From Giardia intestinalis (Eukaryota), in the NCBI GenBank assembly GCA_000002435.2, contig CM018792.1: 64,000 nt of DNA; one strand, written 5' to 3'. The position numbers and the translations under genes were made by a program. The notes beneath the pieces were generated by a model. The model did no database searches. It saw only the letters and a program-made list of their open reading frames with translations, and was not told the DNA's origin. The stretch's first letter is position 1. The number at the start of each line of letters is the position of its first letter. Below, one piece after another: positions 34,663 through 37,956 of the stretch.

Positions 34663-37600
34663 ATGCGTCCCGCTGCCAATAGTACTGTCTATGATACATT
34701 CTACGATCCCGATTTGGTGATGCCACCACTCAAGAATCCCATGGCGACGACAGCAAAACAGCCCGGCGTTTATCCACAACTTACGTCCCGTGTAGCCACT
34801 CTGAGCACATACTCTGGCGATGCACTTTCTGCCAATCCGCGGCGAAGTTACTCTACCGACAGAAGCATGCAGTCGGCAGAGAACCTCATTGCCTCTCTTT
34901 ACGGGAAGAACAGAGCAGTACCCGAGCCGCGGAAGTTGAATGACAATACTTTTGTTGACACACTCCCGATTAATAAGCCCACAATTTCGACCTCTAACAC
35001 GAACTCAGTGTATGATAAGCTTATTAAAGATCCGGCAAAGCGGCAAACTAAGGCTTTGGCAAAGATCGATAAAGAGTCTCTGATGGATGAGATACAGACA
35101 CTTCGCAAGCAAAAGAACGCGCTTGAGGAGCTCACGCGTAAGCAGCAGACAAGAATTTCCCGCCTCGAGGAGCTTTTGAAGTCTAGAGACAAGGAGTTGC
35201 AGAATTTGACGCGAATGATAGCCACCGGCATTCCAGATCCAACCAAAGTGACGGATATGATGGCACTCAAGCAGAAGGAGACCGCTCCGACAATGGACTA
35301 CGTAAAGGGGCTAAAGCATAAGATGAAGGAATATTACGTTAGAAACCAAGAACTGCTCAGCTTTATCGACAGACTGAAGGACAGTATGAACTTTCAACGC
35401 ATGAGGCAGCTAGAGAAAAACCTCCTAATCTATTACGATAAATATAACCAGCTGCGAGTGAAAAATGGTTCCCTTAATCAACACTGCATCGAGCTTGAAG
35501 AGGAGCTTGGAGTGGTTCATGACAAGATGCTTCAAAGCTTACGAGCGAGCAAGAAGTACCAAGGAATGAGGCTATCTGGAGATGCTCAGGATGCTCGGGA
35601 TGACATTATTGCTAGCGTAAGCTCAAGCAAAGACGGAAAGTACACTGGTCCGAGTGCACATGCTTCTCTCATTAGTGGTTCGAAGCAGCGTGAACCAGCT
35701 GCAGAGCCAGATGGCAAGTTTGTCTCTGATATATTTGATGTTTCCAATGTCATGCCGAATGCCAGTGAATCAGGGAAGGCCATCCAGGATCAACTGAACA
35801 AACACTCCATGGCGCTTCAGACCTCGATGATTGCAAATCAGAAGAAGCCTGCCGAACGGGGCCACAGCAAGACGAAGAATGCGAACGAGAAAAACGACCC
35901 TATAGCAGAGCTTGCTGCACGGTTCTATGAGAGCAGGCTGGAGCGTGAACGTAAGCGCTTGGAGTGCTCCTTTATTCCTGATGTCCCTGCTCCCCTTGAA
36001 CAGGTGGAATATAAGCTTATTGAGGATGAGTTTGAAGAGTTTCTGAAGAACTATCGAATTGATAAGACTAGCGACCTTCTTGAAACACAAGGGAATCAGC
36101 AATCCGCGCCGAACCTAGGGAAGCCTACAGGAAACCAGGGAGGAGCTATGGTTCTTAGTAGGGATGCTGGTGCTAAGCAGGCCCAAACAAAGCCCGAAAA
36201 GCTTGCGCGCCGCTTGGTTACGGAGATAAAGCGCTCAGAAGTGGCCTCTGCAGTTTCGGCACAGGCTTCTAACTCACACGAGTCTACAAGTAAGACGTCT
36301 CCTAATGCTATGAAGCGGGAAGAAAACCCTTACTTTGTGCAGAGACGGCCATCTAAGGATACCTGTAGCGAGAAGCCAACCTCGGTATCTGGCAATAGGC
36401 CATATGAAGACACCGACAACGGCTCGACTATATGCGATTGGAACTCGTTTGTCGAACCAGAAATGGTTAGCCGCGTTGGTGTGACAATGACAGAAGTAAC
36501 ATCTGCTGGTGGTCCACGACCGCGGCCAAAGACTCCCTTAAGTGACACATCTGGGCTAGGAGGTGATTCAAAACCATCCAAAAATCCTAATAGCTTTTAT
36601 CCCAATCTGCCGTCACAAAGTGACAAGTCGGCACCTGCTCAATCAGTGCCAGAGGAGGATTCTGGTGTCAAGAATAAGAAACCAGCTGAACAGCTGTCTA
36701 ATTCCGATACTGACTTGCGTAATGAAAACGATCAGAAAAGCACAGATAGAACTGAGGAAGAACCAGCCCAAGAGCAACAGAAGACTATCTCATTTGATCC
36801 TCTCTTTGATCGCTCCCCCGATGAAGCTAAAACGATTAGCGATGCCGTTCCCCCTCCTGAGATAGCGTCTCTTAAGTCAAGTCCTCACGCAACAGATCAG
36901 ACGCAGGATCCTATTATTGTGCAAAGTGTGACGCCAAGAGAGCTCATTGACGAAGCACCAGCTGATGTGCCATCTCAGGCTTCAGTGCAAGATGAGGCCC
37001 AGTATCCTGAGGATGACGAGACGTTCTTGGCCAGTACAGCCAAGCACGTCATAATCCATGAAGAGAACGACGGTGTTATTAACGATTCTGTGAATATAAC
37101 GACGATGGATAGCAAGCCAACAGATACAAAGACTGAGGATATAAGCCTTGGAAATGCCACGTTTGACAGTGGGGTAGAAGAAAACTCGATTCTCACTAGG
37201 TTCCCTCTTACTAATGTGGCTCACGCCAAGCAGGACAACTGCTCTTTGCTTTCACAATCACATATTGACAAGGATGAGCAAAACTCTAACTTGCCGGACT
37301 TGTCCGGGAATCAGACACACGAGTCAAAGACTACGATTAAGGATTACTCTTCTCTAGTTTTAGATTCGCATATGTTCGACGATCCCAAGGCCGTGCAGGA
37401 GCCTTCTGGAGAGGGCACAAAAGACTATTCTTCCCTTCAATTGTATAGTGGGATGTTCGATGGCGGAAACCAGAAGAGCGTTACCGGACCAGACAGTGTC
37501 CGCGATTACTCCTCTCTACAACTTCACAGTGCCATGTTTGACGAGCCCCCTGCATCAAAGTCACACCCGCTCCAAAACAGTGGTGATTATTCATCTCTCC

Positions 37601-37956
37601 AACTATATAGTGGAATGTTCGACGCGCCAGACGAGGAGCCGGAGAAGCCGGTTCCACCCCCGCCACTCAAGGAACCTCACTATCCAGCCAATCCAAAGAT
37701 CAGGATCATCGAAAGCTCCGGTACAGAATCTACTGCGTTTACAATAGAGGGAACAGAACCATCCGCTTTTAAGGCCTACTCCCAAAGTACAACGGCTATG
37801 GAACCTTCAGCGCCGCGACAGGCCAATCCCTTCCAGAAGCTTCAGTTAGAAGATCAGGAAATCGCATTTAGCCACAATAATCCTATTGCTGAAGAGTCCA
37901 GTAGTATGAATAGCAGCGCATCCCACCCAAATCCACGTGATGGAGGGGAAGACTAG
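34663..37956 (+). CDS. hypothetical protein with four C-terminal DYSSLQLYSGMFD motif repeats
   Basis: The track ORF starts at GTG 34588 and overlaps the divergent gene. The first ATG at 34663 sits on GATAAAAATT. It has an N-terminal coiled coil (LMDEIQTLRKQKNALEELTRKQQTRISRLEELLKSRDKELQNL) and a long acidic, S/T/P-rich disordered region. Four spaced copies of the motif lie at nt ~37341-37625. Confidence 0.58.
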   Translation: MRPAANSTVYDTFYDPDLVMPPLKNPMATTAKQPGVYPQLTSRVATLSTYSGDALSANPRRSYSTDRSMQSAENLIASLYGKNRAVPEPRKLNDNTFVDTLPINKPTISTSNTNSVYDKLIKDPAKRQTKALAKIDKESLMDEIQTLRKQKNALEELTRKQQTRISRLEELLKSRDKELQNLTRMIATGIPDPTKVTDMMALKQKETAPTMDYVKGLKHKMKEYYVRNQELLSFIDRLKDSMNFQRMRQLEKNLLIYYDKYNQLRVKNGSLNQHCIELEEELGVVHDKMLQSLRASKKYQGMRLSGDAQDARDDIIASVSSSKDGKYTGPSAHASLISGSKQREPAAEPDGKFVSDIFDVSNVMPNASESGKAIQDQLNKHSMALQTSMIANQKKPAERGHSKTKNANEKNDPIAELAARFYESRLERERKRLECSFIPDVPAPLEQVEYKLIEDEFEEFLKNYRIDKTSDLLETQGNQQSAPNLGKPTGNQGGAMVLSRDAGAKQAQTKPEKLARRLVTEIKRSEVASAVSAQASNSHESTSKTSPNAMKREENPYFVQRRPSKDTCSEKPTSVSGNRPYEDTDNGSTICDWNSFVEPEMVSRVGVTMTEVTSAGGPRPRPKTPLSDTSGLGGDSKPSKNPNSFYPNLPSQSDKSAPAQSVPEEDSGVKNKKPAEQLSNSDTDLRNENDQKSTDRTEEEPAQEQQKTISFDPLFDRSPDEAKTISDAVPPPEIASLKSSPHATDQTQDPIIVQSVTPRELIDEAPADVPSQASVQDEAQYPEDDETFLASTAKHVIIHEENDGVINDSVNITTMDSKPTDTKTEDISLGNATFDSGVEENSILTRFPLTNVAHAKQDNCSLLSQSHIDKDEQNSNLPDLSGNQTHESKTTIKDYSSLVLDSHMFDDPKAVQEPSGEGTKDYSSLQLYSGMFDGGNQKSVTGPDSVRDYSSLQLHSAMFDEPPASKSHPLQNSGDYSSLQLYSGMFDAPDEEPEKPVPPPPLKEPHYPANPKIRIIESSGTESTAFTIEGTEPSAFKAYSQSTTAMEPSAPRQANPFQKLQLEDQEIAFSHNNPIAEESSSMNSSASHPNPRDGGED
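37341..37625 (+). repeat. four in-frame repeats encoding DYSSL(Q/V)L(Y/H/D)S(G/A/H)MFD at ~81-84 nt spacing
   Basis: The copies are KDYSSLVLDSHMFD, KDYSSLQLYSGMFD, RDYSSLQLHSAMFD and GDYSSLQLYSGMFD. The linkers between copies are not conserved, which is typical of a short linear motif array rather than a domain repeat. Confidence 0.6.

Follow-up and report, generated by a model that had tools for sequence, protein, structure and literature searches.

Four copies of a genus-wide conserved 13-residue motif in the acidic tail of a Giardia-specific hypothetical protein: a probable multivalent linear-motif array

Introduction

The feature described here is an array of four copies of a 13-residue motif in the product of GL50803_14950, a gene located in a 64,000-nucleotide stretch of Giardia intestinalis DNA (contig CM018792.1 of assembly GCA_000002435.2; hereafter, the window). 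Its closest described counterparts are repeated binding motifs of several eukaryotic proteins. Endocytic accessory proteins carry many copies of motifs of 3-5 residues, such as DPF/DPW in Eps15 and epsin, DLL/DLF in AP180, and NPF for EH domains, and these arrays bind by avidity. The 15-aa and 20-aa repeats of APC, a metazoan protein, lie in a disordered region and bind one groove of β-catenin in an extended form, an interaction tuned by serine phosphorylation. In the TQT arrays recognized by LC8, found in Nup159 and ASCIZ, evenly spaced strand-forming motifs in disordered chains are bound by strand addition. LC3-interacting regions (LIRs) also bind by β-strand addition.

The product of GL50803_14950 resembles the endocytic arrays in having copies of a hydrophobic-acidic motif, a long acidic tail predicted to be disordered, a structured or coiled-coil N-terminal part, and variable linkers, and it also contains one conserved NPF. 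It differs from them in the length of the motif (13-15 residues) and in the copy number of exactly four. Moreover, DPF/W, FxDxF, clathrin-box, and GAE motifs are absent in the units, and the gene is not found in the text supplements of the Giardia clathrin and phosphoinositide-binding interactomes. With the APC repeats it shares Ser/Leu-rich units (15-20 residues long in APC), a disordered context, and unconserved linkers, but there is no sequence relationship, the APC-like SSL..LS-type pattern is unmatched, and no armadillo-repeat partner is implicated in Giardia. As in LC8 arrays, a dimeric partner could zip together the two tails of a coiled-coil dimer; the Giardia units, however, have no TQT anchor, and their central residue (Q, V, or N) is unconserved. 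The general kind of feature is familiar, and the motif itself is not previously described. The observation holds up: the array is old and under strong constraint, and no second example was found across everything searched.

The four motif copies and their linkers

The gene and the elements of the array are as follows.

34663..37956, + strand: coding sequence of GL50803_14950, 1097 aa plus stop (from open reading frame (ORF) listing, database identity, and orthologue synteny)
37342..37380, + strand: motif copy 1, DYSSLVLDSHMFD, aa 894-906
37381..37422, + strand: linker 1, DPKAVQEPSGEGTK, polar and unconserved; 11 aa in G. muris
37423..37461, + strand: motif copy 2, DYSSLQLYSGMFD, aa 921-933
37462..37503, + strand: linker 2, GGNQKSVTGPDSVR; 15 aa in G. 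muris
37504..37542, + strand: motif copy 3, DYSSLQLHSAMFD, aa 948-960
37543..37584, + strand: linker 3, EPPASKSHPLQNSG; 18 aa in G. muris
37585..37623, + strand: motif copy 4, DYSSLQLYSGMFD, aa 975-987

The encoded protein was 100% identical to XP_001707787.1 (UniProt A8BDG9) of G. intestinalis WB clone C6. It is uncharacterized and Giardia-specific, and its database label is only "hypothetical protein".

The motif, D-Y-S-S-L-x-L-x-S-x-M-F-D, occurred exactly four times in the protein (starting at aa 894, 921, 948, and 975), with a period of exactly 27 aa or 81 nt. An earlier reading based on the letters of the window alone (the sequence-only reading) had quoted four peptides in this protein, and all of them were present in the frame of the ORF starting at ATG 34663. 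It had placed them at 37341-37625, which is the right region but lies 1-2 nt off the codon boundaries, the copies spanning 37342-37623. Copies 2 and 4 are the same peptide and differ at the DNA level by 8 synonymous changes.

A chance origin of the motif was excluded: for a protein with these residue frequencies, 7e-10 matches to DYSSL.L.S.MFD are expected, and none of 20,000 shuffled sequences matched. When the entire 64-kb window was translated in all six frames, neither the complete motif nor a looser form nor its first half (DYSSL) was found beyond the four sites.

The linkers were polar (about 10% hydrophobic residues), with many Pro, Gly, and charged residues. Compared with each other, they were identical at 7-14 of 42 nt, about the random level, which bears out the earlier statement that the sequence between copies is unconserved. 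All three linkers were 14 aa long in G. intestinalis vs. 11, 15, and 18 aa in G. muris, in which the motif spacing was 24, 28, and 31 aa. Since linker lengths differ in this way, the even spacing is specific to the G. intestinalis lineage rather than a requirement kept across the genus; the regular interval of about 27-28 aa noted by the sequence-only reading therefore holds for G. intestinalis but does not extend to G. muris.

Conservation across Giardia and selection on the motif

In a single-sequence database search, orthologues were found in five clusters, none of them outside Giardia. The assemblage B orthologue (GSB_14950 / GL50581_867) showed 85% identity, two further G. intestinalis-type lineages showed 80% and 78%, and two G. 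muris-type orthologues, including GMRT_14530, showed about 46-47%. Together with the gene in the window, these gave six sequences and 24 units (four copies in each) for comparison.

Each of the six sequences contained exactly four units, without a degenerate extra copy, and every unit scored 33-40 bits against a 17-column profile of the unit. Seven of the 13 positions (S3, L5, L7, S9, M11, F12, and D13) were invariant in all 24 units, Y2 and S4 were retained in 22, and positions 6, 8, and 10 were variable. The aromatic residue at position 2 was thus less conserved than the C-terminal half of the unit. The unit was usually followed directly by [DEA]-P, and the extended consensus was [KR]-[DE]-Y-S-S-L-x-L-x-S-[GA]-M-F-D-[DEA]-P.

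The units corresponded copy for copy between species. Copy 1 always carried V6, D/N8, and H/R10, and copies 2-4 carried Q/N6, Y/H8, and G/A10. As these copy-specific signatures were kept in all six sequences, the array is older than the divergence of G. muris from G. intestinalis. The sequence-only reading had named a lack of conservation in orthologues as a finding that would speak against it; instead, the motif was retained in all five, G. muris included.

Between G. intestinalis assemblages, the proportion of non-synonymous differences (pN) for the motif was 0-0.008, as against 0.085-0.109 for the linkers and 0.083-0.124 for the whole gene, so that non-synonymous change was about 10 times lower in the motif than in the linkers or the gene as a whole. 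The corresponding proportion of synonymous differences (pS) was 0.65-0.85 in all classes, i.e., saturated. Between G. intestinalis and G. muris, pN for the motif was 0.13, as against 0.43 for the linkers and 0.38 for the whole gene, with pS again saturated.

Further, the copies within the WB gene differed from each other at essentially all synonymous sites, the invariant DNA columns of the array were first and second codon positions, and Tandem Repeats Finder did not detect the 81-nt period. Given the synonymous divergence and the negative Tandem Repeats Finder result, the signal is an old one at the peptide level and does not reflect a recent duplication, gene conversion, or a DNA or RNA element; a DNA- or RNA-level cause of the conservation was rejected on these grounds. 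Judging from these substitution patterns, purifying selection acts at the protein level and bears most strongly on the motif. The generic picture of a linear motif, i.e., conserved islands amid fast-evolving sequence, was found here in the pN values and in the 7 invariant positions of 13.

Searches for relatives

Only sub-threshold matches to Pfam were obtained with the whole protein, and none at E<=10 with the C-terminal 283 aa. A profile of the whole protein matched no chain in the PDB, and a Foldseek search against the PDB gave only non-significant matches to vimentin coiled coils.

A HMMER search of 1.84e9 cluster representatives with a profile of the C-terminal region retrieved three proteins at E<=1e-3, two of which were from Giardia. 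The third (P0038; E = 4e-4) was a borderline match, and no other array was found in this search of 1.84 billion proteins. In a scan of metagenome DNA, a pattern of two adjacent units gave 0 matches, and the single-unit pattern gave one match, which was non-coding with stop codons and is attributable to chance. Together with the lack of any further copy in the 64-kb window, these results do not support the possibility, raised by the sequence-only reading against itself, that the motif is common low-complexity noise.

P0038 is an actinobacterial-type protein of 365 aa with a signal-peptide-like N-terminus and five 24-aa repeats (GNDYVSLRIGSALFDVESSRSVSG). These follow D-Y-x-S-L-x-[LI]-x-S-[AG]-[LM]-F-D in register with the Giardia unit over 3-4 successive units and with a similar period. 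In contrast to the Giardia array, the linker of P0038 is conserved too, as part of the whole repeat. Its best single domain scored 22.3 bits (E 8.3), and significance was reached only by summing the repeats, a total inflated by the shared periodicity. The relatives of P0038 in Acidimicrobiia and Streptomyces share only its N-terminal domain and are without the repeats. P0038 was therefore rejected as a homologue on its best-domain E value of 8.3, its actinobacterial type, and its repeat-free relatives, and the resemblance is probably a case of convergence. The N-terminal "LDTR" domain of P0038 is itself tandemly repeated in those relatives.

Comparison with known motif classes

The 24 units were compared with ELM-type expressions. 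No unit matched the pattern of the FFAT motif, a VAP/MSP ligand (E-[FY]-[FY..]-[DE]-[AC]-x-[EDST]), in strict or relaxed form, the unit having Met at position 2 and often Asp/Glu at position 5 of that pattern. The clathrin box (L[IVLMF]x[IVLMF][DE]), the AP-2 appendage motifs DP[FW] and FxDxF, and the GAE/GGA appendage motif were found in 0 units of any orthologue. Likewise, no unit matched the LC8 anchor ([TVI]-Q-[TV]), the central position being Q, V, or N, or the patterns for SUMO-interacting motifs (SIM), kinesin light chain (KLC) W-acidic motifs, or APC-like SSL..LS. The array did not resemble Tau/MAP repeats either, with no Pfam tubulin-binding repeat in the C-terminal 283 aa at E<=10 and an acidic character (net charge -9). 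Nor did it look like a structural tandem repeat within one chain, such as a solenoid or β-repeat domain, given the unconserved linkers, their lengths of 11, 15, and 18 aa in G. muris, and the absence of a predicted fold.

Permissive LIR and YxxPhi patterns matched 22 of the 24 units, but also 7-14 sites per orthologue overall. The LIR core ([W/F/Y]-x-x-[L/I/V] after an acidic residue, Ser, or Thr), which D-Y-S-S-L fits, was likewise present in 22 of the 24 units and proved unspecific, with 9-13 sites per protein. Both patterns failed in copy 2 of the two G. muris-type sequences (DHSTL, with His in place of the aromatic residue), where the rest of the unit was intact. In addition, the constraint on the units is not that of an LIR, a four-residue core with an acidic flank; it covers S3, L5, L7, S9, M11, F12, and D13 and runs eight residues past the core. 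YxxPhi signals work in the cytosolic tails of membrane proteins, whereas no segment resembling a membrane span was noticed on reading the sequence, without a formal prediction.

By these profile and pattern comparisons, the motif matches no Pfam family and no specific known motif class, in agreement with the earlier statement that it was not recognizable as one.

Protein architecture and predicted disorder

The following parts of the protein outside the motif copies were distinguished.

34690..34728, + strand: N-terminal island YDTFYDPDLVMPP, aa 10-22; 11 of 13 columns invariant in six orthologues
35071..35547, + strand: helical, probably coiled-coil, domain, aa 137-295 (from AlphaFold2 (AF2) prediction, pN, and conservation)
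36241..37953, + strand: acidic tail predicted to be disordered, aa 527-1097, with conserved short islands including the motif array; predicted local distance difference test score (pLDDT) <50 almost throughout
37825..37833, + strand: single NPF tripeptide, aa 1055-1057, in all six orthologues
37912..37953, + strand: C-terminal island SSASHPNPRDGGED, aa 1084-1097; 12 of 13 columns invariant

AF2 was run on the full-length protein and separately on its last 283 aa, using the alignment of six sequences, with low pLDDT as a proxy for disorder. Residues 1-310 were net basic and formed the best conserved part of the protein, with 52% invariant columns vs. 28% for the rest. Within them, AF2 predicted helices at aa 137-188, 193-205, 211-241, 244-267, and 270-295 with pLDDT up to 93. 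This helical domain was the only confidently predicted and the most conserved part (pN 0.012-0.04 between assemblages). Further helices were predicted between aa 370 and 526.

The remainder (aa 306-1097) had a net charge of -50 and consisted of 73% disorder-promoting residues. In the full-length model, pLDDT in the array was 31-38; in the model of the last 283 aa, mean pLDDT was 45.9 and the array was mostly <50. Neither run showed strand pairing or secondary structure in the array, or docking of the array onto the helical domain of the same protein. The disorder prediction proposed in the sequence-only reading thus left the array region unfolded (pLDDT 30-50), and by this proxy, from two AF2 runs on six sequences, the motif lies where no stable fold is predicted, as is general for linear motifs. 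The earlier description of an "otherwise disordered acidic protein" applies to the C-terminal two thirds but not to the N-terminal ~310 aa, which are net basic and helical at aa 137-295.

Several conserved islands other than the array were present. The surroundings of the N-terminal island YDTFYDPDLVMPP were poorly conserved and of low AF2 confidence, and this island may be a separate docking motif. Likewise, the conserved NPF may be a separate linear motif.

The longest conserved block in the tail was a 48-residue island at 36370-36513 (aa 570-617; EKPTSVSGNR..DTDNGSTI..NSFVEPEMVSRVGVTMTEVTSAGG), which was highly conserved genus-wide and, despite this conservation, predicted by AF2 to be unfolded (pLDDT <50). 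Downstream of the array, a conserved stretch at 37678-37746 (HYPANPKIRIIE..TAFTI) was modeled as a weak β-hairpin (pLDDT 62-70). The near-invariant C-terminus carries an additional PPTV in G. muris.

Gene limits and genomic neighborhood

The ORF of GL50803_14950 runs from ATG 34663 to the stop codon at 37954-37956 and comprises 1097 codons. The mechanical ORF reaches back to a GTG at 34588, and in some assemblies the N-termini are longer (1103-1120 aa). ATG 34663 is supported as the start, because in the alignment the conservation among orthologues begins there. In the ORF listing, no ORF of at least 100 aa in another frame overlapped the motif array.

The neighbors were the same for all five orthologues: a divergent gene of ~720-780 aa and a convergent gene for a NEK kinase with ankyrin repeats. 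The ORF of the latter (37974-39728, minus strand) lies 17 nt past the stop codon of GL50803_14950. Genes are packed very tightly around this locus (37957-37973; 34500-34662), and in G. muris, the intergenic gap to the divergent upstream gene is 11 nt (L001, 5989 to 6001).

Interpretation of the array

The four units are probably repeats of a single linear binding motif that together give a multivalent array. They lie in the acidic tail, predicted to be disordered, of a putative scaffold specific to Giardia, whose N-terminal third is the conserved helical, probably coiled-coil, domain. The proposal of a multivalent linear-motif array made in the sequence-only reading fits the conservation, the selection, the predicted disorder, and the lack of matches to known families; that the units bind a partner, that they are extended when bound, and that the protein dimerizes is inferred.

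An extended strand with one face buried is suggested, because every second position (5, 7, 9, and 11) is invariant and those in between (6, 8, and 10) are variable. A helix would show a period of 3-4. The unit has conserved aromatic (Y2, F12) and acidic (D1, D13) residues at its ends, and Pro or Gly follows two residues after it. This combination of the alternation, the end residues, and the Pro/Gly suggests a unit of ~15 residues suited to strand addition.

Under this explanation, each unit would bind the same surface of a partner in an extended, β-strand-like conformation, in which L5, L7, S9, and M11 would form the buried face, the aromatic residues Y2 and F12 would anchor the unit, and the acidic residues D1 and D13 would cap it. 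The ~15-residue unit would bind a groove or add as a strand to the edge of a sheet. Flexible linkers of 11-18 residues would let four partner molecules, or four adjacent subunits of an oligomer, bind together, and eight partners would be bound if the helical domain dimerizes. The outcome would be avidity or scaffolding on a probably oligomeric helical domain.

More tentatively, and with somewhat less confidence than we place in the multivalent binding array, DYSSLxLxSxMFD could represent a new, Giardia-restricted class of linear motif that forms a strand on binding and whose partner would be a lineage-specific domain or oligomer, with a valency of four that predates the split of G. muris and G. 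intestinalis.

Several points weigh against reading the units as linear binding motifs. The content of 5-6 hydrophobic residues per 13 is high for a classical short motif, and the strict alternation is equally expected of a self-associating β segment. Low AF2 confidence is weak evidence of disorder, with only six sequences used. P0038, the sole outside match, is a tandem repeat with the whole unit conserved and is probably structural, and it shows that the residue pattern of the unit is possible in a wholly conserved repeat. No paper in the searchable literature names GL50803_14950 in its main text. The gene is also absent from the text supplements of the clathrin, phosphoinositide-binding, unconventional-secretion, and mitosome interactomes, and from those of the ventral-disc proteome and the 608-protein localization atlas. 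Its one supplement entry, from one replicate of an actin pull-down (hits: 0 F-actin, 2 G-actin, 0 cross-linked), is at noise level, and these hits indicate that the protein is expressed and nothing more.

The alternative that survives best, which we nevertheless regard as unlikely, is a structural one, in which the units would be four β-prone segments that pair into an intrachain sheet or solenoid, or into an interchain cross-β zipper, and thereby drive folding or self-assembly. It would account for the strict alternation of invariant and variable positions over residues 5-11, for the richness of the unit in hydrophobic residues, and for the in-register likeness to the fully conserved 24-aa repeats (DYVSLRIGSALFD) of the secreted actinobacterial protein. 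It is at odds with the two independent AF2 runs, in which strand pairing was absent at pLDDT 30-50, and with the Pro-, Gly-, and charge-rich linkers, which evolve at the gene-average rate and shift in length in G. muris. Moreover, the likeness to the outside protein is weak (22.3 bits, E 8.3), reaches significance only on the summed repeats, and is not shared by the repeat-free relatives of that protein.

Less likely again is a tau-like binding to a lattice, in which successive units would sit on successive subunits of a filament, such as microtubules, giardin/SF-assemblin ribbons, or Giardia actin. The layout of four imperfect repeats of ~27 aa, in which conserved cores are separated by variable stretches within a largely disordered chain, echoes that of tau, MAP2, and MAP4 (~30 aa per repeat). 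In addition, lineage-specific cytoskeletal proteins are numerous in Giardia, and the single pull-down detection was in the G-actin condition. However, a spectral count of two in a single replicate does not rise above noise. Tau repeats are basic, as microtubule-binding repeats are, and carry PGGG, whereas the Giardia array and tail are acidic (-9 and -50), and the Pfam tubulin-binding repeat is unmatched. The absence of the gene from the text supplements of the ventral-disc proteome and the localization atlas also counts against such a role, and the spacing of 24, 28, and 31 aa in G. muris argues against a fixed register.

Giardia encodes many NEK kinases, and we consider it improbable, although the idea deserves mention, that the units are primarily regulatory phosphorylation sites (S3, S4, and S9), used for example by a NEK kinase to switch the behavior or stability of the tail. 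The three serines are invariant or nearly so across the 24 units, and the gene for the NEK-ankyrin kinase is a conserved downstream neighbor. Such adjacency is weak evidence in a eukaryote without operons, where synteny is in any case broadly conserved. Further, kinase sites rarely need ten fixed residues in 13, and the invariant hydrophobic residues indicate a binding interface. Literature searches for the Giardia phosphoproteome, which yielded no phosphoproteomic data, and for Giardia linear motifs returned nothing usable. Phosphorylation of the serines can be reconciled with the multivalent binding array, as phospho-regulated binding.

Least probable of all is that each unit is an LIR/Atg8-interacting motif (AIM) or YxxPhi signal centered on D-Y-S-S-L, making the protein a multivalent receptor for an ATG8-like protein or an adaptor mu subunit. 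A binding partner for an LIR may exist, since Giardia is reported to have an ATG8-like protein (PMC10127389), and the permissive patterns fit 22 of the 24 units, but those patterns are unspecific (7-14 sites per orthologue), do not match copy 2 in either G. muris-type sequence, and leave the invariant L7, S9, M11, F12, and D13 unexplained.

Significance for Giardia biology

The finding bears on no open question of long standing, and eukaryotic scaffolds often carry arrays of this general type. Its value lies in the entry point that it provides. About 40% of the Giardia proteome is without assigned function (PMC13322205). Most of these function-less proteins give no entry point, whereas GL50803_14950 offers a peptide of 13-17 residues with defined invariant positions. 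If DYSSLxLxSxMFD is indeed a new class of linear motif, no motif of this sort would have been defined in a diplomonad before, within the reach of these searches, and it would be a handle for finding an uncharted Giardia protein complex. An approach with the motif peptide could expose a Giardia-specific recognition module or complex. More generally, comparing single motifs across G. intestinalis assemblages and G. muris for conservation can pinpoint functional sites in long, disordered "hypothetical" proteins.

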